The position numbers were made by a program, and so were the translations under genes. A DNA stretch of 64,000 bases from a bacterium (GTDB taxonomy: Bacteria; UBA6262; WVXT01), in the NCBI GenBank assembly GCA_046759165.1, contig JBHIBS010000001.1:4002-68001 (forward strand), given 5' to 3'. Numbering within the stretch: the stretch's first letter is position 1; each line of letters begins with the position of its first letter. This document shows, in pieces, positions 3,357-49,766 of the stretch. Below the pieces are notes generated by a model. The model was not told where the DNA came from, did no database searches, and saw only the letters and a program-made list of their open reading frames with translations.

Positions 3357-4310
3357 CTACGCAATGCCTAAATTCTGAAGGTAGCCTCGGGAACTGATGA
3401 CATCTTCTCTCAATGAGATGTCATGAGGTTCCAGTACTTTGATGGTGTGATGGTTCAAATAGGAACTAACGATTTCAAAGTTTATCTCGCCGTTTCCAGG
3501 ACTGTGATGGTCGGAAAAGCCAATTATATCATGGAGATGAATTCCCAGCAATTTGTCAGAATACTCCTTCAAAAAACTTTCATCTGAGTCTACTAAACCC
3601 AGCTTCTGGGCAACCCGAGCGTGGCCGGTATCGTGCCAATAATAAACATTCTTACCTGGAAAATGTTCCAAGATTAATCTTATCTCTTCAAAACTCGGAA
3701 TTTCATGATGGAAAAATCTATTCTCCATGCCGAGTTTTATATTGAATCTCTCTGAATAATTACTAATTTCCTCTAAGCTCTTTAGTGTATTTGAAAAGTA
3801 CACAGCCTTTTCCTTCTCCCGTCGATTGAGTACCTCCGATATCAATTTTTTACACAGACCTCTCTTTCCCTGAGCACAATAGTTAAAAATCTCTTTTGCT
3901 CGGCTTTCTATTGCTACCTCTCCTGCATGAATAACCACTGCCTCTGCATTCAAAAGATGAGCGAAATCAATGGTTCTCTTGGTAAGCTCAACTGCCTTCT
4001 TCCTCTCTTCACCATCACACGAAGAGAGGAGATAAGCACCCATAAGGGACCGACCTGATGGGACTTTAGTGAGTTTGGGGCAAAAATTATGTAAGGACAC
4101 AATTTTAATTTTTCCTTTTTTGTAAAGAACTAATATTTCATCGAGCATTTGTTCAGTCACCTCGACATTCAATTCTATTGCCGAAAATCCCATGTCTATA
4201 ATTTCTTCAACTAAGCTTTTCCCGTTCTGATATCTTTTTACATTCCAGGCAGTAGATAGAGCCAACAATGTTCTTCCCTCCAAATAATTCAGACAAAAGA
4301 CTTTAGACAC
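3357..4310 (-). CDS. Sugar phosphate isomerase/epimerase (xylose isomerase-like TIM barrel) family protein
   Basis: About 317 aa with HD/HxH metal-ligand-like motifs (WHDTGHA, HLHD); family assignment by recognition only. Confidence 0.5.
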   Translation of the reverse strand: MSKVFCLNYLEGRTLLALSTAWNVKRYQNGKSLVEEIIDMGFSAIELNVEVTEQMLDEILVLYKKGKIKIVSLHNFCPKLTKVPSGRSLMGAYLLSSCDGEERKKAVELTKRTIDFAHLLNAEAVVIHAGEVAIESRAKEIFNYCAQGKRGLCKKLISEVLNRREKEKAVYFSNTLKSLEEISNYSERFNIKLGMENRFFHHEIPSFEEIRLILEHFPGKNVYYWHDTGHARVAQKLGLVDSDESFLKEYSDKLLGIHLHDIIGFSDHHSPGNGEINFEIVSSYLNHHTIKVLEPHDISLREDVISSRGYLQNLGIA

Positions 4311-7333: not shown

Positions 7334-7452
7334 CCCTGGCGATGTCCTACTCTTCCATACCGTTACCAGTACAGTACCATCAGCGCTGGAGGCCTTAACT
7401 TCTGTGTTCGGGATGGGAACAGGTGTTTCACCTCCGCCATAATCGCCAGGGG
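7334..7452 (-). rRNA. rrf: 5S ribosomal RNA
   Basis: Reverse complement reads CCCTGGCGATTATGGCGGAGGTGAAACACCTGTTCCCATCCCGAACACAGAAG...GGAAGAGTAGGACATCGCCAGGG, a canonical 5S. Confidence 0.9.
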
Positions 7453-7479
7453 AAAACGTTTAATAAAATCAAATAGTAT

Positions 7480-10565
<3,086 letters not shown>

Positions 10566-10719
10566 TACTACTTAATTTTACTCGACGATATATTGAATCC
10601 ACCTGCATAATAGCAGGGTACCCTTTATTTGTCAAAGAGCAAATAAATATAAGAAACAAAATGTAAGTGAAAAATTCTCCCCACTTACACCCTATATCTT
10701 TCTACTTGTCTTTTTTATC

Positions 10720-10795
10720 TGGTGGAGAATACCGGACTTGAACCGGTGACCTCCTCGGTGCAAGCGAGGCGCTCTCCCAACTGAGCTAATTCCCC
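10720..10795 (-). tRNA. tRNA-Ala (anticodon UGC), CCA encoded
   Basis: Reverse complement GGGGAATTAGCTCAGTTGGGAGAGCGCCTCGCTTGCACCGAGGAGGTCACCGGTTCAAGTCCGGTATTCTCCACCA. Confidence 0.93.
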
Positions 10796-10891
10796 ATGTA
10801 GATGCGCAGAATATTTCTTAACTTATAAACTGGGCCAGACCCACAAAAAAGGCAGATGAAGGAAACGAGTTCTCACTTACCCCTGCCTCTT

Positions 10892-10968
10892 TGGTGGGCC
10901 TTTCTGGGTTCGAACCAGAGACCTCTACCTTATCAGGATAGCGCTCTAACCAACTGAGCTAAAGGCCC
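10892..10968 (-). tRNA. tRNA-Ile (anticodon GAU), CCA encoded
   Basis: Reverse complement GGGCCTTTAGCTCAGTTGGTTAGAGCGCTATCCTGATAAGGTAGAGGTCTCTGGTTCGAACCCAGAAAGGCCCACCA. Confidence 0.93.
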
Positions 10969-11090
10969 TTTCTGAATTGACCTAAGATTTATATAGTTAA
11001 TATAAACTTTTTCTTATATAACTGAGCCTTTTAGCCTCCTATTAACATTTATTAAAATTAAATAGGAGCTGAAGCCAAAAACCCTGAAAT

Positions 11091-12691
<1,601 letters not shown>

Positions 12692-12768
12692 GGAAATTTA
12701 CTCAACACCTTGAATTGACCAGGGTTATCTGGCTCCAATGCTCCTATTTTGATTTCAAAGAACTAACC

Positions 12769-35438: not shown

Positions 35439-35723
35439 CTATTTTATTATGAAAGAACCTACCAGCCAAAAGAGTAGAACAAATATCACCAGAAGTGTGA
35501 TGGAAAGGGTAGACTCTTCCTGAATCGGTATAAACTTCCGCGCCTGATTGAGGATGAGCTCCGAAAAGTCCTTAATAATCGGCCCACCCAAAACGGTGCT
35601 TAAATCTTTGCCTTGCCTGGTCAGAATGAACTTGGCTAAGACTACAAGGAACAGGATAATTAACAAACTGTTAATCAGGCAACCGAGGACATTTAGTAGA
35701 AATTGCATATCCCCTCCTCTCAA
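35439..35723 (-). CDS. yggT: YggT family membrane protein
   Basis: 94 aa with two TM helices; lies downstream of proC and yggS, matching the conserved yggS-proC-yggT neighbourhood. Confidence 0.65.
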   Translation of the reverse strand: MRGGDMQFLLNVLGCLINSLLIILFLVVLAKFILTRQGKDLSTVLGGPIIKDFSELILNQARKFIPIQEESTLSITLLVIFVLLFWLVGSFIIK

Positions 35724-36536
35724 TTAACCTGCGCTTAGCCCTTTTGACCTTCTAGCAGCCTCCTTCACGGCTGCAATCAAAATTTTCTGGAATCCTTCTT
35801 CCTCAAGATATTTCAACGCAGCTTCAGTTGTTCCGCCAGGTGATGTCACTTTTGCCCTTAAAACTTGAGGACTTTCCCCTATCTCCATAACCATTCTTGC
35901 TGCACCGAGGACCGTCTGACCAACCAGGTTTCTCGCATCCTCCTCCGACAAACCCATCTCCATTCCCGCCTCAATTAGGGATTCAATGATGTAGAATATA
36001 TACGCTGGACCGCTACCCGACAAGGCAGTTACTGCATCGAGCATCTCTTCAGGAACCTTAACCACAATTCCCACTCCACGCATCATCTGTTCTGCAATCG
36101 CCTCCTCCCCTTCACCTGCATATTTACCTGGGGAGACACCTGAGGCACCTGTCTTGACCAGAGCAGGAGTATTGGGCATCACTCTAACCACTGGAACTTC
36201 TCTGCCAAGAGTCTCCTCTATAAAGCCCGTAGTAATTCCAGCAGCGATGGAGATAATTACTTTATCTCTTGTCACGACATCCTTAATTTCAGAAAGAACC
36301 TTCCCGATTACCTGGGGCTTTACAGCCAAAACAATAACATCGCTCTTCTCCGCTGCTTCTCTGTTGTCCTTGGTAGTGGAGACTCCTTCCCTTTCACTGA
36401 TATGCTCAAGCCGCTTAGGTCTAATATCAGTAGCCAAAACTTTATCCCTACTAATGAGTCCGCTCCTCAGAACTCCGGAGATCAATGCGCTACCCATATT
36501 TCCACACCCAATGAAGGCTACCCTTTTCTCTCTCAA
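35724..36536 (-). CDS. proC: Pyrroline-5-carboxylate reductase
   Basis: Rossmann motif VAFIGCGNMGSAL and a ProC C-terminal dimerisation domain. The frame stays open to 36722 through a GA-rich tract. A TTG at 36536 gives a typical 270-aa ProC, so the start is uncertain. Confidence 0.85.
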   Translation of the reverse strand: MREKRVAFIGCGNMGSALISGVLRSGLISRDKVLATDIRPKRLEHISEREGVSTTKDNREAAEKSDVIVLAVKPQVIGKVLSEIKDVVTRDKVIISIAAGITTGFIEETLGREVPVVRVMPNTPALVKTGASGVSPGKYAGEGEEAIAEQMMRGVGIVVKVPEEMLDAVTALSGSGPAYIFYIIESLIEAGMEMGLSEEDARNLVGQTVLGAARMVMEIGESPQVLRAKVTSPGGTTEAALKYLEEEGFQKILIAAVKEAARRSKGLSAG

Positions 36537-36711
36537 TAAATCTCTTTTCTCCTCAGGAACCACACCGGATGAACTTTTCCTCCTTTCTCCTTTACGACGT
36601 TCAACAAAGGGAGGCCTTCCTCCGCCAGGACGGCGTCTTTCTCCCTTTCTCTTCTCTTCTCTCCGGAACTTTTGGCTATTTCGTTTCATAACTTTCCTTC
36701 TCACATTATTT

Positions 36712-37392
36712 TTATCGCCCAAAGATTGCCGTTCCTATCCGCACCATGTTTGAGCCTTCCTCAATAGCCACTTCAAAGTCATTACTCATACCCATCGAGA
36801 GGTATACCGTTTCCACATTCTTTATATTCTCAGCTCTTACTTCCTCCGTCAGCTCCCTCAGTTTTCTAAAGTAGGGTCTACAATCCTCCGGATTTTCATA
36901 AAGGGGTGCCATGGTCATCAGTCCTTCAACCTTTATGTTGGAAAGTCCACTAACTTCTTTCAGAAAAGTGATTACCTCTTCAGGCCTCAATCCATACTTC
37001 GATTCTTCGCCCGATACATTCACTTCAATTAATATTTTCTGTATCTTCCCGACTTTTCTGGCCTGCTTGTCAATCTCTTTCGCCAATTTAGCGCTGTCCA
37101 CGGAATGGATTAAATCAAAAATTTTGATGGCATCCTTTGCCTTGTTCCTCTGCAAGTGCCCTACCAAGTGCCAGATAACTCTATTGTCTACTTTTGCATA
37201 TTTTTCTTTTGCTTCCTGAACTCGGCTCTCACCAATAATATTTGCTCCCGAGGCTATTGCCTCTTCAATCCTATCCACCTCTACTGTTTTGGTCACTGCC
37301 ACCAGAGTTATCTCCTGAGGATCTCGACCGACCAATTGCGACTTCACTCGGATCTTCTCACCAATTTTTTCTAAATTTTCCTTTATCGACAT
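36712..37392 (-). CDS. yggS: YggS family pyridoxal-phosphate homeostasis protein
   Basis: Alr-N-like TIM barrel; VTKT and [12 protein letters not shown] motifs; 226 aa. Confidence 0.9.
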
Positions 37393-37956
37393 ATTTTATC
37401 TATAATGTACTGCTCTCCAACGCTCCTTGGTTAATTCTGTAACCATTTTCAATTCCATTATGGTCGGCACTTTTGCCATTTGATTTTATTTTTCCTTTAT
37501 TTCTTCATTTGAGTAGCAAATTCCAGAACCAAAAAACTCATCAAGATTCGATACTTTTCCTTTTAAACAACAGAAGAACTACATTGTAGAATTGGTCTTT
37601 AATTTTTGAAAAAACCTGTTACCACAGCCGTTCTAGGGTCAAAAGACCTGCGGCCTATTGTTTGCCTCTCGGCAAAAAAAAGTTTTAGACGACTTATGCG
37701 TCTACCTTTAGTCGGGCGAAAGGGAAGTCTAAATCAAGAGTTAATGAAATCCTCGAAGAAACTGCTAGAGAATTTTCTAGAAGGAGAGAAGCTCCCCGGG
37801 AACTCAAACCGGCTGTCTCTAGAGAGAAACTCGTTGGAATAGTACTTGGCAAATTCTTAATTCTTACTTTAACAGGGATCCGTGCTAAAACCCTTATCGA
37901 TGCCCTTCTATCTGCTGAAGTTAAGAGGCTCTTGATTCTCTTCTCCTTTCCAGAAT

Positions 37957-38136
37957 TTAATGGTACTTGCTATTCGATTTTTGCTTCACCCAAGAATCTA
38001 TTTCTGACTTGTTGTAACGCCACTGTTTCCCAATTTTCGAGGCAGGAATTTTACCCTGTCTGGTCATTTTGTAAACTGTAACCTTACTCAACCTAAGATA
38101 ATCTGCTACTTCTTTTATAGTCATTAATCTTTGCAT
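37957..38136 (-). CDS. Excisionase-family helix-turn-helix DNA-binding protein (59 aa, not in ORF track)
   Basis: Hand translation MQRLMTIKEVADYLRLSKVTVYKMTRQGKIPASKIGKQWRYNKSEIDSWVKQKSNSKYH matches the Xis/AlpA/MerR-like HTH_17 pattern (TVKEVAEYLRVS.TVYRL...G.LPA.KIGRQWR). GGGGAG RBS 5 nt upstream. Confidence 0.75.
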   Translation of the reverse strand: MQRLMTIKEVADYLRLSKVTVYKMTRQGKIPASKIGKQWRYNKSEIDSWVKQKSNSKYH

Positions 38137-38170
38137 TATCTCCCCTTTCCATTCTTCTGGTCCTTTATTA

Positions 38171-38190
38171 TATCTTTTGATATCTTTTGA
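38171..38190 (-). promoter_or_regulatory. Tandem 10-bp direct repeat (TCAAAAGATA x2 in sense orientation) in the leader of the HTH gene; candidate operator
   Basis: Plus strand reads tatcttttga tatcttttga, lying between the predicted -10 and the RBS of the HTH gene. Confidence 0.4.
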
Positions 38191-38206
38191 CTTTTCGTAA
38201 TATTTA

Positions 38207-38235
38207 ATGATATATCATACCCAAAAAGAAGTCAA
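38207..38235 (-). promoter_or_regulatory. Candidate sigma70 promoter of the HTH gene (TTGACT-17-TATCAT)
   Basis: Minus-sense -35 TTGACT (38230-38235), 17-nt spacer, -10 TATCAT (38207-38212). The -35 overlaps the pgeF stop codon. Confidence 0.5.
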
Positions 38236-38990
38236 GAAAAATTTAGTTGAATTATTGCCATAAGGCGTCCGGCGGAGTCTTTATCTCGGCGATAAGAAAA
38301 GAAATTCTTATCTTCATAAGTACAAATGGGAGTTATTTCTATATTTTCCGGGAGAACCCCCGCTCGCTGCAACTGGTAAGAATTTGCCTTAGCCAAATCG
38401 ATGGACCAAGATTTTTCGTAGGAGGCTTGAGCCTTTGCTTGAAGGGATTCGGAAATTACCGAGGCTAAAACTTGTATTCCAAAGGACTCAAAGCACTCGG
38501 TGAAAGCTTTTGCTACTGGGTACCAAGAGACTCTATAACATTCTTTGCAAATATGCGGTCCAATGGCTACAAGAAGATTTTCTGCTTTTACTCCGAAAAC
38601 CTCCGACATCATCTCCACTGCTTTGGCGGAAATATTGGCAACTGTGCTTCGCCAACCCCCGTGCAGGAGACCCACTATTTTCCTTTGCGGGTCGAAAAGG
38701 AATATGGGTGGGCAATCTGCAACAAATATGGCAAGAGGAACATTGGGTAGGTCAGTAATAAGTCCGTCTGTAATTGGAATTTCTCTGCCCAAATCTTTCT
38801 CTCTAACTATAGCGATGCTATTCTTGTGTACTTGATCTCCAGTAGTGATTCGAGAATACGGTATGTTCAATCGGTAGGCTATCTGTCTTCTCTTTTCCGG
38901 GAATTTTGAATTGCCTGCATTGCGAGTTGTAATGCCAGCCAAAACGGGAAACCTGGAATTAAAGGAGATGGGAAGAAAGAAGTCTTCCAT
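38232..38990 (-). CDS. pgeF: Peptidoglycan editing factor PgeF (YfiH/YlmD laccase-domain protein)
   Basis: Conserved His/Cys (HGGW, HICKECY). Position next to ftsZ matches ylmD in Firmicutes dcw clusters. Confidence 0.85.
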   Translation of the reverse strand: MEDFFLPISFNSRFPVLAGITTRNAGNSKFPEKRRQIAYRLNIPYSRITTGDQVHKNSIAIVREKDLGREIPITDGLITDLPNVPLAIFVADCPPIFLFDPQRKIVGLLHGGWRSTVANISAKAVEMMSEVFGVKAENLLVAIGPHICKECYRVSWYPVAKAFTECFESFGIQVLASVISESLQAKAQASYEKSWSIDLAKANSYQLQRAGVLPENIEITPICTYEDKNFFSYRRDKDSAGRLMAIIQLNFS

Positions 38991-39115
38991 TTAGCCATTA
39001 AAATATGCACCCTGCACGATTTGAAATTGTACCTACAAATGTCACTGCCAGCGACCGAAAAGAGCGTGGTTCTGACTAGTCGAGACCTCACTTCGTTCGC
39101 AATGACAGTGCATAA

Positions 39116-40210
39116 TCAACCTTTCGCACCACTTCCCGAATCTATCCCACGAATATATAATAGAAGCTCTTCGGGATTACTGGCAGAAGCTAAGGCATCT
39201 TCCAGCTTAACCAGTCCCTTACTATACAATTTCTGTAATGCCTGATTGAAAGTTTGCATTCCGTAATAATCGCCCTTTTCCATACTGCCAAGAATTTCTC
39301 CCATCTTATTTTCTTCTATCAATTTCTTGACCAGCGCAGTAACAACCAGAACTTCCACTGCGGGTACTCTGCCCTTCCCATCAGCTTTGGGCAGAAGCCT
39401 CTGGGAAATCACTGCCTTCAAGGTATCAGCCAATTGCAGGCGAACTTGATTCTGTTGGTAAGGGGGAAAGAGGTCTACAATACGGGTTACGGTTTGAATT
39501 GCGTCGATCGTATGGACCGTGGATAATACAAGACTTCCCAGCTGGGCTGCAGTCAATGCTGCAGCCATTGTGGCTAAATCTCTCATTTCACCTACTAGGA
39601 TTACATTGGGATCCTGGCGGACAATATGTTTTAAGGCTGCAGGATAATCGAGTGTATCTTCACCTAACTCCCTTTGACTTACAATGCTCTTCTTATCTCG
39701 ATGAAGAAATTCAATAGGATCTTCGATTGTTATAGTATGAACCGAACGGGTGGAATTAATGTAGTCGACAATTGCAGCCAGCGTTGTAGATTTGCCACAG
39801 CCGGTCGGCCCTGTGACCAATACAAGTCCCCGCTCATTCTCTGAAATCTTCTTTAATACAGGGGGCAAATTTAACTCTTCAAAATCAGGGACTTCAAAAG
39901 GTACAGGGCGAAATACGACGTGGATAGTTCCTCTCTGGAGGAAAACATTGATCCTAAAACGGGCCAATCCCTCTATTGCATAAGACAGGTCGCACTCGTG
40001 ATTTTCCTTGAAAATCTGTTTCTGCTTCTCATTTAAAACGGATAGGCCAATCCGCTCAGTATCCCGGGAACTAAGCACAGGATATGAACTCCGCACGAGT
40101 CGTCCATCAATTCGAAAAATCGGCGGACTTCCGGCACGGAGATGCAAGTCCGAAACCTTCTTATCAACCATTTCGCGTAAAAGGTCAACAATTTCCATCT
40201 CAGCTCCCAA
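39116..40210 (-). CDS. pilT: Type IV pilus retraction ATPase PilT (twitching motility protein)
   Basis: PilT N-terminus (DLHL.AGSPP..RIDG), Walker A GPTGCGKSTT, Asp box, His box; 364 aa. Confidence 0.88.
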   Translation of the reverse strand: MGAEMEIVDLLREMVDKKVSDLHLRAGSPPIFRIDGRLVRSSYPVLSSRDTERIGLSVLNEKQKQIFKENHECDLSYAIEGLARFRINVFLQRGTIHVVFRPVPFEVPDFEELNLPPVLKKISENERGLVLVTGPTGCGKSTTLAAIVDYINSTRSVHTITIEDPIEFLHRDKKSIVSQRELGEDTLDYPAALKHIVRQDPNVILVGEMRDLATMAAALTAAQLGSLVLSTVHTIDAIQTVTRIVDLFPPYQQNQVRLQLADTLKAVISQRLLPKADGKGRVPAVEVLVVTALVKKLIEENKMGEILGSMEKGDYYGMQTFNQALQKLYSKGLVKLEDALASASNPEELLLYIRGIDSGSGAKG

Positions 40211-40222
40211 AAATCATCAGAG

Positions 40223-41326
40223 TTACCGGTACCCCTTCCTTCTCCGAATAAAAGTGGGCACTCGCAGGTTCTCCTTCAGATAGCCCGGCTCTCTCAGTGA
40301 CTCCTTCTTGTATTCCCATAAATCCCCTGCCAACTCTTCTTGTCTGAGTTTCTCTCCGAGAGAAGTTCGAGGTGGAGGAAAACCAGTAGCAATTACAGTA
40401 ATTTTCACCTCATCTTTGAGGATCTCATCGAATGCTTGGCCAAAAAAGACATTTGCTGCAGAGGAAGAAGCATTGTGAATTAAGTCCATTGCCTCCTTAA
40501 TTTCAAACATCGTAATATCTCTATTTCCGGTGATATTGACCAAAATACCTTTGGCGCCTGCAATAGAAACATCTTCTAACAAAGGGCAATTTATAGCTGC
40601 CTTAGCCGCCTTAATTGCTCTATCTTTCCCGCGTCCCCGTCCCATTCCCATTAACGCCTCTCCGGCACCAACCATAATCGTTTTCACATCAGCAAAATCA
40701 ACATTAATCATTCCATGTGATGTAATAATCTCTGAGATACTCTGTACTGCCTGACGCAGAACATCGTCAGCCACTTTAAAGGCATCCAGAGCCGGGGTAG
40801 TTTCATCAATAATGGCAAACAGTCTCTGGTTCGGGATAACGATCAAAGTATCGACCTTTTTCTTCATTATTTTCAATCCTTCCTCAGCCTGCTTAAAGCG
40901 AATGGGCCCTTCAAACATAAATGGCTTAGTAACCACTCCTACGGTCAGAGCCCCCAAATCTTTAGCTATCTCTGCGACAACTGGCGCGCCTCCTGTGCCG
41001 GTCCCCCCTCCCATACCCACGGTGATAAATACCATATCAGCACCTGCAAGGGTTTCCCTAATTGCATCCCGGTCTTCCTCGGCAGCCTGGCGACCTTTCT
41101 CAGGATCCCCTCCCACTCCCAAACCCTTGGTAAGATTGGCTCCCAATTGTAAGCGATATCCAGCCAGAGAATCACGAAGAGCTTGGGCATCGGTGTTTGC
41201 TGCAATAAACTCCACACCTTTTATCCCGGAGACAACCATGCGCTTGATTGCATTGCCTCCTCCGCCACCAATGCCTATAACTTTTATATTTGCAGTAAGG
41301 TCGACGTCCTGCTTGAACTTTAACAT
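40223..41326 (-). CDS. ftsZ: Cell division GTPase FtsZ
   Basis: GGGTGTG tubulin signature, T7 loop NVDFAD, C-terminal conserved peptide. Confidence 0.95.
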
Positions 41327-41404: not shown

Positions 41405-42634
41405 TTAAAAGACCTCTTCGAGCCAGTGTTTTATCTTGCGGAAGACAGAGGGTCTCTTTCTTCCTGTGAATCTCCTCTCATAAATAGGAAATTCATCTTT
41501 TTGGGCATATTTAATCAAGCCAATGGCTGTAGCATAGACTGGACTACAGATAACCTCTGAAAGTCCCTCCACCTTCTGGGGCACACCCAATCTCATAGGC
41601 AGGTCCAAAATCTCTTCAGTAATCTCTTTAACCCCTGATAGCAAAGCGCCGCCTCCTGTTAGAATCCCTCCAGCAGGTATTAAATTCTCCCTGCCTATTT
41701 TTGCCATCTCTTCGCGGACAAAAGTAAAGATTTCCTCTATCCGCGGCTGGATAATCTCGCAGAGTTTACTGGTCAGGATTGTCTGTCGGGATTTACCATC
41801 CATACTCAAGATATTTATTTCCACATTATCGGAAATCATCTTCATTTGGGTACAGCCAAATTCCTTCTTAATCCTTTCTGCTTCTGAGAGAGGGACATGA
41901 AGACAGTGAGCTATATCTTTTGTAATCACGTCACTTCCAATTGGAAGTGCTCTGGTGGCTTTGAGACCTCCTTCAACGAAGATGGCTAAATCCACAGTCT
42001 GTCCACCGAAATCGATAAGCACACATCCCAAATCTTTCTCCTCAGGGGTAACTACAGTTTCTGCTGCAGCTAATACGCTCAAGACTATGTTCTCTACTTC
42101 CAAGCCATTTCTATTAATACATTTGATAAGGTTGTTTATTGTGGTGGAGACTCCTGTTACAATGTGGACATGGACTCCCAGGTGACTGCCTTCCATTCCT
42201 ACGGGATCCATTACTCCCCTCTGACCATCAACCACGAAGCCCTGAGCGAGGGTATGGATGATTTCCCGCTCGGGAGATAACCGAATGGCCCGGGCTGAAT
42301 CGATGACTCTTAATATATCCTCTTCAGCGATCTCTTTATCAGAACGAGAAATCATAATTGCTCCCTGATGATTGAAACTTTCGATATGACCACCGTCAAT
42401 TCCTACGTAAACCGCTTTAATGGAAGTATTTGCCATTCCTTCTGCTTCATCTATAACTTGACCTATGGCGCGGGTGGTCTCCTCAATGTTAACCACTACA
42501 CCGTTCCGTAAACCACGACAGGGTATCCTAGCTGATCCTATTATTTCCACTTCTGGTTTCTGGGTAACTTTACCTACAAGAGCACAAACATTGCTTGAGC
42601 CTACATCAAGACCAATAATTATTTTCTGTTTCAT
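41405..42634 (-). CDS. ftsA: Cell division protein FtsA
   Basis: Actin-like ATPase; GLDVGSSNVCALVG N-terminus; follows ftsQ. Confidence 0.93.
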   Translation of the reverse strand: MKQKIIIGLDVGSSNVCALVGKVTQKPEVEIIGSARIPCRGLRNGVVVNIEETTRAIGQVIDEAEGMANTSIKAVYVGIDGGHIESFNHQGAIMISRSDKEIAEEDILRVIDSARAIRLSPEREIIHTLAQGFVVDGQRGVMDPVGMEGSHLGVHVHIVTGVSTTINNLIKCINRNGLEVENIVLSVLAAAETVVTPEEKDLGCVLIDFGGQTVDLAIFVEGGLKATRALPIGSDVITKDIAHCLHVPLSEAERIKKEFGCTQMKMISDNVEINILSMDGKSRQTILTSKLCEIIQPRIEEIFTFVREEMAKIGRENLIPAGGILTGGGALLSGVKEITEEILDLPMRLGVPQKVEGLSEVICSPVYATAIGLIKYAQKDEFPIYERRFTGRKRPSVFRKIKHWLEEVF

Positions 42635-45320: not shown

Positions 45321-47498
45321 CTAGGTCCTCTCACGATTTTCTTCCCAGATGGGTAGGAAGATAGTAAACTTGGTTCCTTTCTCTACTTCGCTCTCTACAT
45401 TTATTTCCCCATTGTGGTCTCTTATTATACGATAAGCCATTGACAATCCCACTCCTGTTCCTTTGGAGCCCTTGGTGGTAAAGAAGAGGTCGAACAGTTT
45501 ATCTAGGTTCTCTTTAGAAATTCCGCAACCATTATCTGCTATTGTTATCTCGACCTTTTCCGGATTATCTTTTCCAGCACTTGCTGAAATGGTGAGTTCT
45601 CCTTTCTTACCAGCCATCGCCTCGCAGGCATTTATAATCATATTCAAAAAGACCTGTTCCAGCTGGACACCAATCCCTTTTATCTTGGCCAAATCTTGGG
45701 GAATATCTTTACTTACATTAATACCTCCCCGAGAAATTTGATACTGTGCTAAGCCCAGGGCATCTTCCATTACAGAATTCAAGTCTGTCGGCAGAAAGTC
45801 CCTATCAGAAGGTTTAGCATAGCCCCTTATCCTCTGGATGAGCTTAGCCGCCCTGTGAGCAGTCTCCACCATCTTCTCCTGTCTGTCCCTTATGGTTTGC
45901 AGGATTTCTTTCTCCCTTTCAGTCAGATTTGCTTGACTGAAATCTTCCTTTATGTCACGGATGCACAACTCAGCGCCCATACTGACAATGGCTAAAGGGT
46001 TATCTATCTGATGGGCAAAGCCAGCAGCCAACTCCCCAACGGAAGAGAGCCTAGCCGCCTGAATCATTGTCGCTTGAGACTCTTTAAGTTCCTGATAGAA
46101 TTGAGCATTCTCAATCGCTAAAGCAGCCTGCCCGGCTAAAATCTTAAACATGTCTAAATCGTCAGGCGTATAAATCTCTTTGGAGCGCTTTGTACCCAAC
46201 ACTAAAAAGGCAGTCAGCTCTTCACCGATGAAAGCAGGCAATAATAGAGATGCCCCCATACTTCTCAATTGTGTTTCCACTTCTCCCAGGTGTTCTCGCT
46301 CGCTGGTCTGAAAATGGCTGATAACTTCCTCTTTCAAAATAGGTCCTCTATCTCTACTTCTGGATAGTATCTGAATTAAAGGAGCATCTTTAGATAGAGA
46401 ATCTCCGACCTGTTTTCTTCTCTCTTTGCCATAGCGAATCTCCCGCACATATTGATTGGTTCTCTTATCCCATAGATAAATGCGGGCATGACTGATTCCG
46501 ATTTCCTTCGTCACATCACGAATGATTAAAACCAAAAGGCTCCTTAGATCTTTGGTCAAAGTCATTTGCTTTGCCAAGTTTATTAAGTTTTGTTGGTATA
46601 TCCTTTGCTTCTTTAAAAGGATTCTATTAGCTCTCTCCTGGAAGTAATGACTTATGGTAGGAGCAACAAAAGCGAGTAATTCACACCCAGCCACACCAGC
46701 TGGCACAAGCCACCAATAAGTACCAAAGTACCGATATAAAAAAGGCCGATGAAGAACAAGAAGTAACGGTGGAATTCCTAAAAAGATAGAGTAAACGGTT
46801 GTAAATATCGCCGTCTTAGTGACCGCCGCGGTAATATCCATCAGCCGCGTCGTAATGATTGCATAAGTTATTATAATAGGATATAAGAAAACTAAATAAT
46901 GACCAAATGGAAATATCGGGATATTATAAATCAATGGATAGTTGGTCGCTCCTCCACCGAATCCAATAATAGAAGCTAACAAGATATATCTTATCTGGTT
47001 ACGCTTGTACCCAGAGACCTCTTTATACTTTGTGAGCATAATATAAATAGAATAGACAACGCACGAAGAGAATGTTAAAAGGAAGAAGTGGTACACGACA
47101 CCAGGTTGCGGATAATACCTAAAGGAAAGCTTAGGGACTATGTCTTTAATAAAGAAAGGAGTCAAATTAAAACTTAGAAGGACTAGACCGATTAAGTAAA
47201 CGCATTTAATTAATCTTTTCCGTTTCTCTCGGAGATCCAAAAACGAATGAACAAAATCGAGAAAAAATACAGGAATCAAAGTAGCACCAGAATAAAGAAC
47301 TCGTGTCCAAAATAGAGCTTTCCCCTTGTCAATCGAGAGCAACAACATAAAATAGGCAAATCCCCAAATAAATATGCTCATGCTTAACAAGCACCATATT
47401 TTGTTTGTAAATTGTTTTCTATTCTTAAAATATACGAATAATCCAAGAATTAAACCGATTATTGCGGTTATTAAACATGATAGTGCAAAGTACATCAA
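45321..47498 (-). CDS. Sensor histidine kinase: multi-TM N-terminal domain, GAF, HisKA, HATPase_c (no cognate response regulator adjacent)
   Basis: About seven hydrophobic helices in the first 280 aa; GAF-like region; H-box ELAAGFAHQIDNPL; N/G1/G2 boxes (NACEAM, DNGCGI, GSKGTGVGL). Its stop abuts the murB start, and its start is 3 nt from the DUF362 stop. Confidence 0.85.
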   Translation of the reverse strand: MMYFALSCLITAIIGLILGLFVYFKNRKQFTNKIWCLLSMSIFIWGFAYFMLLLSIDKGKALFWTRVLYSGATLIPVFFLDFVHSFLDLREKRKRLIKCVYLIGLVLLSFNLTPFFIKDIVPKLSFRYYPQPGVVYHFFLLTFSSCVVYSIYIMLTKYKEVSGYKRNQIRYILLASIIGFGGGATNYPLIYNIPIFPFGHYLVFLYPIIITYAIITTRLMDITAAVTKTAIFTTVYSIFLGIPPLLLVLHRPFLYRYFGTYWWLVPAGVAGCELLAFVAPTISHYFQERANRILLKKQRIYQQNLINLAKQMTLTKDLRSLLVLIIRDVTKEIGISHARIYLWDKRTNQYVREIRYGKERRKQVGDSLSKDAPLIQILSRSRDRGPILKEEVISHFQTSEREHLGEVETQLRSMGASLLLPAFIGEELTAFLVLGTKRSKEIYTPDDLDMFKILAGQAALAIENAQFYQELKESQATMIQAARLSSVGELAAGFAHQIDNPLAIVSMGAELCIRDIKEDFSQANLTEREKEILQTIRDRQEKMVETAHRAAKLIQRIRGYAKPSDRDFLPTDLNSVMEDALGLAQYQISRGGINVSKDIPQDLAKIKGIGVQLEQVFLNMIINACEAMAGKKGELTISASAGKDNPEKVEITIADNGCGISKENLDKLFDLFFTTKGSKGTGVGLSMAYRIIRDHNGEINVESEVEKGTKFTIFLPIWEENRERT

Positions 47499-47500
47499 TT

Positions 47501-48643
47501 TTATACCACCGATAATTTCACACTCAGATAATTTACGACGTGTTTTAGGGAGGGAGGACAGCCCTCTAAGTGCTCTACATTATTCTTTTTACACCATTCT
47601 TGTGCACAATCTCCTATGCCTATGCATTTACCCATTCGCGAGACGTCCAATCCATGGCAGTTTCCAAATACTACATCTGTTCTGAATAAATGTGACCTCG
47701 TAAAGAGGGAGAAACTGGGAATAAATTTTCTTTTTATTTCTTTGCCTGCTCTATCAAGGTTGATGATGCACCTCGAACATGCACTAGTCGGCCAAATGTA
47801 TAGTTTTTTTCCCTTTAGAATAAACCTTGTAGCCGGGACGAATTTGACCATTCTGTCTTCATTCTCTCTGATTTTACTCTCCTGGACAAATTTTCCAGCC
47901 CCAATATTTTCTGCTATACAAATATGTTTTACACGTGAATAGTCTAGTCCTATCATCGCCGCCGCAAACGAATCAATCTCAACCATATCGTCACCACAGA
48001 AGACCAGATTTGCTGTTCTATCCTTACCATGATGTGGTCCATTTTCTTCCATTCCTGTAATGCCTTCTATCATATTTAGGGTTGGCTTAATAATTTCTCC
48101 TAGATACGCAATATATCTATCCAAATCCAGCTTGTGCATCTGGAGCTTATTAACCGACGGTAACACCCCCATTTGGTTTTTCAGGGATAGTGTTACTCCT
48201 GTTTCCATATGCGTCTTAAGCTTCGCTAGGTTAATGTAGCTGTCGACTTCAGTCAAAATTTCAGGTATCATAAAGGTTATTTGCTTACATTTTACCTTCC
48301 TCCTTTTGGCCTTGTCTAAATTTAAAAGGGTTACTCCTCTAAGAGAGGCGAATTGTTGAAAATTAGAAAGTTTAAGGATTCGTTCGAAAGGATAAGGCTG
48401 TTCAGGAGTTCCTATGAGAGAAGTATGTCCAATTATAACTTTACAGTTTCTTCCTAACAAAAAGGCAAGCAGTTCTTTCATAAAATTCGCATCGGTATTT
48501 TCACTTTTATAAATTGGGACTCTACCTCCCAAGTTTGGCTTGATAAAAATCTTGCCCCTAGGTTTGAACCCCATCTTATTGAAAAGGCTTTCAACATGAC
48601 TTCTCAGATCTCCTCCGCCATACTTTTCTAAGAGGACAGCCAT
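47501..48643 (-). CDS. DUF362 domain protein with Cys-rich C-terminal extension
   Basis: IFIKPNLGG and AKLKTH core typical of DUF362; C-terminal CSRCIINLD...CHG...CIGIGDCAQEWC...C cluster. Confidence 0.6.
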   Translation of the reverse strand: MAVLLEKYGGGDLRSHVESLFNKMGFKPRGKIFIKPNLGGRVPIYKSENTDANFMKELLAFLLGRNCKVIIGHTSLIGTPEQPYPFERILKLSNFQQFASLRGVTLLNLDKAKRRKVKCKQITFMIPEILTEVDSYINLAKLKTHMETGVTLSLKNQMGVLPSVNKLQMHKLDLDRYIAYLGEIIKPTLNMIEGITGMEENGPHHGKDRTANLVFCGDDMVEIDSFAAAMIGLDYSRVKHICIAENIGAGKFVQESKIRENEDRMVKFVPATRFILKGKKLYIWPTSACSRCIINLDRAGKEIKRKFIPSFSLFTRSHLFRTDVVFGNCHGLDVSRMGKCIGIGDCAQEWCKKNNVEHLEGCPPSLKHVVNYLSVKLSVV

Positions 48644-48878
48644 TTTTCGGAACCTTCTTTTTCCTCTCCCCTGTCTGGATAGTTAAGACAAGATTGTTTT
48701 ATTCATTAGAAATACTCTTCCGCGACTCTCTTGCTTAGCGGCCTTCTTAGCTTTTTTGGATTGACAATATTGAGTTTCCGCATACGCCCAAATATACTGG
48801 TTCTAATTTATAGGCGATAACATACCTTCGGGGTCATGTTTTTCAACCCGGTTTTAGCTTTTTCTACCCCAATTCTAA

Positions 48879-49766
48879 CTATGTAGAAAAAGTCTTGGGT
48901 ATTTGCGATAGGTTCGATATTTTGTCCATGACCTCATCTGCCATTTTTTGCAATGTATTTTTACTGGTCTTTTTGCCGAAGTACTTATTTAGAAAAATCT
49001 GCTCACCTATGCGGACTTTACACCTGCGAGAAAGACGGGGAAAAGGCACATCTCTCGGGAATACATCAAATGTCCCTGTAATGCCCACAGGGATTATTGG
49101 GACCCTTGCTACTATTCCAAGTTTTACAAATCCTAGTTTCCCTCTCTGAATTTTTCCATTTATAGATCTACTTCCTTCCGGGAATATTACTACCACTTTA
49201 TTTTGCTGCAAAATCTTCACTACTTCTCTAAAATATTTTACTCCAGGTTCTTCTCTGTCCAAGTAAATCCTCTCGTTATATCTCATAAACCATCTTAAAA
49301 TCGACACTCGATGTAATTCCCGTGCTGCCAAAAAATATAATCTTCTTCTTATTACAGCAGATATAATAAAGAAATCAAGATAACTAGCGTGATTTGCCAC
49401 AATGATAGCACTATCTAATTTCGGCACACTCTCTATACCTTCTACTTCCCGTATCCAAAAAAGATAAAGAATTGCCCTTACTATTGGCTTTGTTAACAGA
49501 TAAAAGACTCTTACGAGTAGTGGAGTTCTACGGTCAAATGCCCTGCGTTCGGATTTTGATCTCCTGTCGAGGAAATCGATCTCTATTTTTTTGACCCTTC
49601 GTTCCTTACGTCTACGTTCCCTTTGTTTACGGCTGTTCATGTATACATTTTGCTTCTGATAAGGGTCTTCAATCAACCTATGTTTAATTTTATAACTTGC
49701 AAAATTACCCAGCATCTCGTCATCTTTAGTATACATTTTGCCAAGAATGTGCCAGATTTTGCCCAT
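48879..49766 (-). CDS. Lysophospholipid (1-acyl-sn-glycerol-3-phosphate) acyltransferase family protein, PlsC-like
   Basis: HxxxxD motif in IVANHASYLDF and FPEGSRS motif. A TM helix precedes the domain. About 80 aa of Arg/Lys-rich N-terminal sequence has an uncertain start. Confidence 0.8.
   Translation of the reverse strand: MGKIWHILGKMYTKDDEMLGNFASYKIKHRLIEDPYQKQNVYMNSRKQRERRRKERRVKKIEIDFLDRRSKSERRAFDRRTPLLVRVFYLLTKPIVRAILYLFWIREVEGIESVPKLDSAIIVANHASYLDFFIISAVIRRRLYFLAARELHRVSILRWFMRYNERIYLDREEPGVKYFREVVKILQQNKVVVIFPEGSRSINGKIQRGKLGFVKLGIVARVPIIPVGITGTFDVFPRDVPFPRLSRRCKVRIGEQIFLNKYFGKKTSKNTLQKMADEVMDKISNLSQIPKTFST

Follow-up and report, generated by a model that had tools for sequence, protein, structure and literature searches.

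Genes for the pilus retraction ATPase PilT are commonly encoded apart from the other pil genes, and type IVa pilus systems are modelled as multi-locus systems. In Clostridium perfringens and related clostridia, pilT forms a coordinately regulated operon with ftsA and ftsZ in the order pilT-ftsA-ftsZ (PMC6958937). The product is a working retraction ATPase needed for motility, and the authors left the reason for the linkage unexplained while noting that it points to some connection of pili with the divisome (PMC6958937). PilT-family ATPases also occur as second motors, which in Thermus and Geobacter have secondary roles and fine-tune retraction on the same pilus, and Geobacter PilT1 is encoded in the operon of a housekeeping gene, recA. 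Here, we analyzed a 64-kb stretch of bacterial DNA (the window; positions 4,002 to 68,001 of contig JBHIBS010000001.1, assembly GCA_046759165.1), in which a 360-residue PilT/PilU-family protein is encoded on the minus strand at 39116..40198, between ftsZ and pgeF, at the end of the division and cell wall (dcw) cluster. We found that this pilT paralogue keeps its position behind ftsZ in the sampled Elusimicrobiota, relatives of which carry a second PilT in a separate pilus locus. The ftsZ-linked protein probably retracts type IVa pili as an accessory or alternative motor ATPase that is co-expressed with ftsA-ftsZ, its gene having been captured by the dcw cluster at the 3' end.

The locus is similar to that of C. 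perfringens in that pilT belongs to an operon-like unit with ftsA and ftsZ that is conserved among related species (PMC6958937). However, pilT is upstream of ftsA in C. perfringens, while in the window it comes after ftsZ and before pgeF, and Elusimicrobiota relatives own a second, locus-linked PilT beside the ftsZ-linked copy. Since pilT lies on opposite sides of ftsA-ftsZ, the two linkages are considered to be of independent origin. Compared with canonical PilTs (P. aeruginosa PilT, G. metallireducens PilT4, and A. aeolicus PilT), the window protein has the same length and two-domain layout. It differs by a glutamine at position 219, found throughout its group, by S222 and L220, found in the window subgroup, and by the motif LVKKLIEE, and its gene is inside the dcw cluster rather than beside pilB/pilC or pilU. 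As a second PilT-family ATPase beside a primary PilT, it resembles Pseudomonas and Vibrio PilU, Neisseria PilT2, Thermus PilT2, Geobacter PilT1-3, and Myxococcus PilU, but it differs from these accessory paralogues in its fixed position after ftsZ. Our literature search returned no paper describing ftsZ-pilT in dcw clusters, the ftsZ-pilT-pgeF order, or the Elusimicrobiota paralogue.

As judged from its sequence, the window gene is a genuine PilT-family hexameric ATPase with intact catalytic motifs. The protein (TIGR01420, PF00437) scored 466.8 bits on TIGR01420, the model of the PilT/PilU family of type 4a pilus ATPases, covering profile positions 2-343 of 343, with the curated cutoff at 319.1 bits. 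The GspE and PilB models gave 126 and 118 bits and matched the ATPase core only (residues ~115-270). Pfam detected no MshEN domain, and the protein is a short form without the N-terminal MshEN/N1 region of PilB and GspE. Against solved structures it scored 320-381 bits with PilTs, 300 with PilU, ~110 with DotB, and ~87 with PilB, and is therefore nearer by bit score to characterized PilT than to PilU, from which it also differs in that its gene is not in tandem with another pilT. Because the protein is ~50% identical to several solved PilTs, its PilT fold is certain.

The Walker A motif GPTGCGKST (residues 130-138, with K136; 39785..39811) is invariant across the clade alignment. The Asp box TIEDPIEF (residues 157-164, with E159, D160, and E163; 39707..39730) and the Walker B motif NVILVGEMRD, with the catalytic E204 (39578..39607), were read in the window protein, and EDPIEF and VILVGEMRD are invariant among clade members. 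The residue numbers of K136, E163, E204, and H229 are identical to those in P. aeruginosa PilT. The His-box region, AAQLGSLVLSTVHTI (39506..39550), retains H229 and carries Q219, L220, and S222 where E, T, and H are usual, and the counterpart of the PilT AIRNLIRE motif is LVKKLIEE (39311..39334). The clade consensus at this motif resembles that of the window protein, and many sampled PilTs of other phyla are also without the strict motif.

The pilT open reading frame (ORF) is present where the original prediction placed it and reads on the minus strand, as do its neighbors: ftsA (41405..42634; TIGR01174, 398.9 bits) and ftsZ (40223..41326; TIGR00065, 416 bits; TAA stop at 40223-40225), which complete the ftsA-ftsZ-pilT run, and pgeF of the ylmD/yfiH family (38232..38990; TIGR00726, 155.5 bits; PF02578), directly downstream of pilT. 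The 12-nt spacer between ftsZ and pilT that had been claimed applies only if translation begins at the TTG at 40210. A start at the ATG at 40198 is likelier, because a GGGAG Shine-Dalgarno (ribosome-binding) site lies 5 nt 5' of it in the spacer, public gene calls of the identical protein give 360 residues with an ATG start, and every pilT homologue begins with M-[ED]-[IL], which matches this ATG. The spacer then measures 24 nt (40199..40222; CTCTGATGATTTTTGGGAGCTGAG, read directly). Two short public contigs carry the identical protein among the same neighbor genes, and the samples that contain it are SRR29324602 and SRR29324603. The pilT-pgeF spacer is 125 nt long and has no significant fold relative to shuffled sequence (z = -0.33); no terminator-like hairpin was predicted in either spacer, and Rfam gave no match in 37300-39200 at E up to 1. 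With the common strand, the 24-nt spacer, the lack of a predicted terminator, and the ORF overlaps of relatives described below, the proposed co-transcription of pilT with ftsA and ftsZ is plausible.

The window PilT falls in a tight group of proteins from Elusimicrobiota metagenome-assembled genomes (MAGs) that are 84-98% identical to it, and a broader set of homologues, 59-66% identical, is named Elusimicrobia, Elusimicrobiota, or Endomicrobiales. We looked up the synteny of eight divergent homologues (60-66% identical) by exact protein (L003, L005, L166, L167, L169, L170, L171, and L174). The order murC-murB-ddl-ftsQ-ftsA-ftsZ-pilT was found in all eight, and pgeF directly followed pilT in seven, the exception being L167. 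Beyond pgeF, most relatives have pheA and aromatic amino-acid (aro) genes and others have yggS-proC; this variation indicates that only part of the neighborhood is constrained. L171 matches the full window order, ftsZ-pilT-pgeF-yggS-proC-x-mtnA-ileS-lspA. L167 and L171 have an 11-nt overlap between the ftsZ and pilT ORFs, and L005 and L171 a 4-nt overlap between pilT and pgeF; such overlaps are the usual sign of translational coupling and may reflect it here. Collection scans added three loci with ftsA-ftsZ-pilT or ftsZ-pilT (L032, from an Elusimicrobia MAG, L086, and L087).

The matches listed in these scans were mostly PilTs of other phyla at ~50% identity, which were used as the outgroup, and close relatives were missed. 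Among the ~150 other-phyla PilT loci listed, one has ftsA-ftsZ-pilT (L139), and none has pgeF, yggS, or proC near pilT (tblastn, E up to 1e-4), although this sample is poor in gamma- and betaproteobacteria and says little on the pilT-yggS/proC linkage outside Elusimicrobiota. L139 (941-4419) is a high-GC metagenome contig with ftsQ-ftsA-ftsZ-pilT, a 4-nt ftsZ/pilT overlap, and an ETGH motif; convergent radical S-adenosylmethionine genes follow pilT, and pgeF is absent. Here, pilT seems to have come to lie behind ftsZ in a separate event.

The suggestion of a lineage-specific operon fusion is therefore borne out: ftsA-ftsZ-pilT(-pgeF) is kept in every Elusimicrobiota relative examined and is nearly absent from the other-phyla loci listed. 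The original prediction had also allowed for an incidental rearrangement, to be recognized by a full pilus locus elsewhere together with a linkage absent from relatives. A full pilus locus was found, in relatives, while the linkage proved not to be absent from them, and its conservation there excludes an incidental rearrangement. The earlier view that a lone PilT-like ATPase in a division operon is atypical was overstated, since a detached pilT is normal in type IVa systems and both the C. perfringens operon and the pilT-yggS arrangement of Proteobacteria are on record. With every sampled relative sharing it, the linkage is more general than had been supposed; it is also less anomalous in kind, because division-operon pilT genes and multiple PilT paralogues are already known.

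The absence of other pilus genes from the window, as originally claimed, was confirmed in three ways. A tblastn search of the 64 kb with PilB, PilC, PilD, PilM, PilN, PilO, and PilQ recovered only pilT itself, through the PilB ATPase domain; a scan for the pilin N-terminal motif found none; and Pfam assigned no pilus families to the unannotated ORFs. The window also has no second PilT-like match, and the neighbors of pilT are ftsZ and pgeF, so that it is not a PilU-style tandem.

Pilus machinery was found in the relatives. Annotations of Elusimicrobiota and Endomicrobiales MAGs include AMIN-domain PilQ secretins, L172 carries pilMNOPQ, and L173 and L175 have complete loci of the form pilB-pilT-(response regulator)-pilC-pilin-pilD-pilMNOPQ. 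The PilT of these loci is 46-50% identical to the ftsZ-linked PilT and lies outside the ftsZ-linked group in a distance tree; its 120 close homologues form a separate set, in which many are named Elusimicrobiota or Endomicrobiales. In GCA_020523885.1 (Candidatus Liberimonas magnetica), ftsZ-pilT-pgeF is on contig 5 and pilB-pilT-pilC-pilD-pilMNOPQ on contig 2, and the two PilTs are 47% identical. GCA_016930715.1 has ftsZ-pilT-pgeF together with pilMNOPQ, and the proximity of protein accessions suggests that a locus-type PilT is present in the same MAG, both here and in GCA_016929635.1. In GCA_043821115.1, pilMNOPQ lies 4.5 kb downstream of ftsZ-pilT, and a third PilT type is found on another contig, beside cyclic di-GMP (c-di-GMP) enzymes. 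The genome of Elusimicrobium minutum reportedly holds many pilus and pseudopilin genes, and the pilus systems of reduced Endomicrobium endosymbionts are reported to be incomplete. Because relatives also own a canonical locus with its own pilT, the ftsZ-linked gene is regarded as an extra paralogue.

Two observations on these loci are worth mentioning. A 535-residue protein with a response-regulator domain is encoded between pilT and pilC in L173 (2682-4289) and has no counterpart in locus L175 of Ca. Liberimonas. The third Elusimicrobiota PilT type (L007, 9989-11071; L025, 6326-7441) has a normal ETGH motif and adjoins a GGDEF or HD-GYP c-di-GMP enzyme, as well as unusual proteins in which a DnaA-type ATPase domain is joined to an N-terminal region common to these proteins (M-I-x-x-W-E…). 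L025 and the ftsZ-linked locus L167 come from the same assembly.

Residue 219 distinguishes the two groups of Elusimicrobiota PilTs. It is glutamine in all 11 ftsZ-linked loci and in 119 of the 119 members of the ftsZ-linked homologue set, and glutamate in the locus-linked group (ETGH, 117/117) and in 160 of 165 sampled PilTs of other lineages. E219 (E220 in Geobacter PilT) is located at subunit-packing interfaces, and the E219K substitution destabilizes P. aeruginosa PilT. We considered Q219 as a unique synapomorphy of the ftsZ-linked group and rejected it: none of the 165 outgroup PilTs has Q219, but the solved PilT 5fl3, which we take to be that of Thermus thermophilus, has QTGH, reading AAQTGHLVLSTLHT at the His-box region. 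Since 5fl3 carries Q there, Q219 is compatible with a folded PilT hexamer.

The window protein and its 20 closest homologues additionally have L220 and S222, so that QLGS replaces ETGH, while residue 222 is histidine in most of the ftsZ-linked clade and in 163 of the 165 outgroup PilTs. The H222A variant of P. aeruginosa PilT is still functional, with twitching and retraction velocity reduced and more falling off the machine. Taken together, Q219, S222, and LVKKLIEE would fit a working but kinetically different motor. A pseudogene does not fit, because the substitutions are conserved within groups and 60-66% identity is maintained across the phylum.

On the reading that we favor, pilT joined the 3' end of the dcw operon before the sampled Elusimicrobiota diverged. 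It would be co-transcribed with ftsA-ftsZ, with translational coupling in some relatives, and the supply of PilT would follow growth and division. The protein would dock on the PilC/PilMNOPQ machinery that the canonical PilT uses and would supplement that PilT or alternate with it in retraction, with Pseudomonas PilU, Neisseria PilT2, and Thermus PilT2 as comparable second motors, and Q219, together with S222 in the window genus, may tune motor speed or processivity.

Several points weigh against this account of the gene. The organism itself was viewed through 64 kb only, and the co-occurrence with pilus machinery was seen in its relatives. Elusimicrobiota isolates are described as non-motile, and co-expression with ftsA and ftsZ is deduced from gene layout. 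H222, which is 99% conserved in sampled PilTs, is serine in the window, and normal motor function is therefore not guaranteed; at the AIRNLIRE motif, LVKKLIEE retains only L, I, and E. The ftsZ-linked proteins do cluster in the neighbor-joining distance tree, but with a bootstrap of 37%, and because this support is weak the orthology of the group rests mainly on synteny and Q219.

The original prediction had raised the idea that the ATPase was repurposed for division or envelope function. Here the ftsZ-linked PilT would act off the pilus, in cytokinesis or envelope remodeling, for example with FtsA/FtsZ or the cell-wall enzyme PgeF. The fixed ftsZ-pgeF position across the phylum and the overlapping ORFs are in keeping with such a role, as are the altered E219Q interface residue and AIRNLIRE region and the independent linkage of pilT to ftsA-ftsZ in Clostridium and in L139, and the separate canonical PilT in the pilus locus of relatives would free the ftsZ-linked copy. 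Nevertheless, the gene retains all catalytic motifs of working PilTs, relatives with the gene carry complete type IVa machinery, and pilus machinery co-occurs in every relative where this is checkable; these observations leave the idea unsupported. Q219 is also present in the solved 5fl3, and we know of no PilT-family protein acting outside type IV filament systems. The ftsAZ-linked PilT of C. perfringens is a working pilus motor (PMC6958937). We consider repurposing unlikely. A related, more speculative proposal, which seems to us quite improbable, is a division-coupled motor that installs, resets, or clears pilus machines at the septum or new pole, or has a pilus-independent envelope role with PgeF; if it were true, the recurrent capture of pilT by ftsA-ftsZ would reflect a general, unrecognized functional coupling of PilT with the divisome.

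The ftsZ-linked gene could instead be the sole or primary PilT of this organism, with its dcw position providing constitutive expression, as in C. perfringens. That no second pilT lies within the 64-kb window agrees with this, as do the frequent separation of pilT from other pil genes and the requirement of the ftsAZ-linked pilT for motility in C. perfringens (PMC6958937). We regard it as possible but doubtful, given that the locus-linked PilTs, with their 120 close homologues, are common across Elusimicrobiota and that both PilT types were shown directly in at least one assembly, with accession proximity suggesting two more; in addition, the window subgroup has H222S, and H222A lowers retraction velocity in P. 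aeruginosa. It is very unlikely, in our judgment, that a pilT duplicate merely persists behind ftsZ because the dcw cluster resists rearrangement, its position being functionally meaningless. The cluster is indeed conserved through the window and its relatives, and the genes beyond pgeF vary among relatives, as neutral persistence would have it. But the ftsZ/pilT and pilT/pgeF overlaps in several lineages suggest selected co-expression, pilT apparently became linked to ftsA-ftsZ independently in three lineages, and the cluster is not immutable, because the insertion of three genes between murC and murB was tolerated in the window lineage.

The arrangement hints, without proof, at a link between pilus retraction and cell division. 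The Elusimicrobiota locus, the C. perfringens operon, and L139 represent three apparently independent captures of pilT by ftsA-ftsZ, and they make a testable pattern: is the supply or localization of the retraction motor coupled to cytokinesis? PilT paralogues are common and their division of labor is poorly understood. The ftsZ-linked PilT is useful in this regard, as it has a fixed address between ftsZ and pgeF across the whole phylum, and S222 provides a natural His-box variant in one genus. Q219 versus E219 is a simple diagnostic residue that separates the ftsZ-linked PilT from the pilus-locus PilT of the same genomes. The public names of the homologues are mixed between 'PilT' and 'PilT/PilU family', and Q219 combined with the ftsZ context would be a better annotation rule.

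The locus also links two conserved neighborhoods, ftsZ-ylmD-ylmE and pilT-yggS-proC. According to reviews, dcw genes, proC, and pilT are found in clusters with yggS-family genes. E. coli encodes a PilT homologue, yggR, next to yggS-yggT and in divergent orientation. The window order ftsZ-pilT-pgeF-yggS-proC combines the neighborhood of Proteobacteria (pilT/yggR-yggS-proC-yggT) with that of Gram-positive bacteria (ftsZ-ylmD-ylmE-sepF-ylmG). In Proteobacteria, however, pilT is divergent from yggS and not near ftsZ. To our knowledge, Gram-positive bacteria have no pilT between ftsZ and ylmD.

The dcw cluster itself is read on the minus strand from 62734 down to 40223, in the order mraZ-rsmH-ftsL-ftsI-murE-murF-mraY-murD-ftsW-murG-murC-[3 genes]-murB-ddl-ftsQ-ftsA-ftsZ. 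After ftsZ, the same strand carries pilT, pgeF, a small helix-turn-helix (HTH) ORF, yggS, proC, a 94-residue membrane ORF, mtnA, ileS, lspA, and rluD. NCBIfam confirmed ftsA, ftsZ, pgeF, yggS, proC, mtnA, and ileS, and the other dcw genes were assigned from their translations. The three genes inserted between murC and murB (45321-49766, minus strand) encode an acyltransferase (48879-49766), a DUF362 protein (47501-48643), and a histidine kinase with seven-transmembrane (7TM) and GAF domains (45321-47498); the relatives looked up have no gene between murC and murB.

Downstream of pgeF, on the minus strand, the pyridoxal phosphate-binding protein YggS/YlmE is encoded at 36712..37392 (TIGR00044, 194.5 bits). 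The 840-bp gap between pgeF and yggS (37393-38231) contains a 59-residue HTH_17 (excisionase/MerR-like) DNA-binding ORF at 37957..38136 (PF12728, 76.3 bits; also called in L001) and ~560 bp without a called gene or Rfam match. In L171, pgeF and yggS are ~50 bp apart and the HTH_17 ORF is absent, and the gap looks like a lineage-specific insertion. The proC gene (35724..36722, minus strand; TIGR00112, 291 bits) matches its model over residues 68-328 only, and its product has a strongly Arg/Lys-rich N-terminal extension of ~65 residues, most of which is retained in a public 321-residue gene call. The 94-residue ORF that follows (35439..35723, minus strand) encodes a two-helix membrane protein without a family match, in the position that yggT holds in Proteobacteria. 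We do not assign it to YggT, as there was no Pfam or NCBIfam match at E up to 1 and BLASTP against E. coli YggT was not significant (E = 0.035). Elsewhere in the window, the minus strand carries a complete rRNA operon (7334-12694) with 16S, two spacer tRNAs, 23S, and 5S, and the plus-strand ORFs listed across it are spurious.

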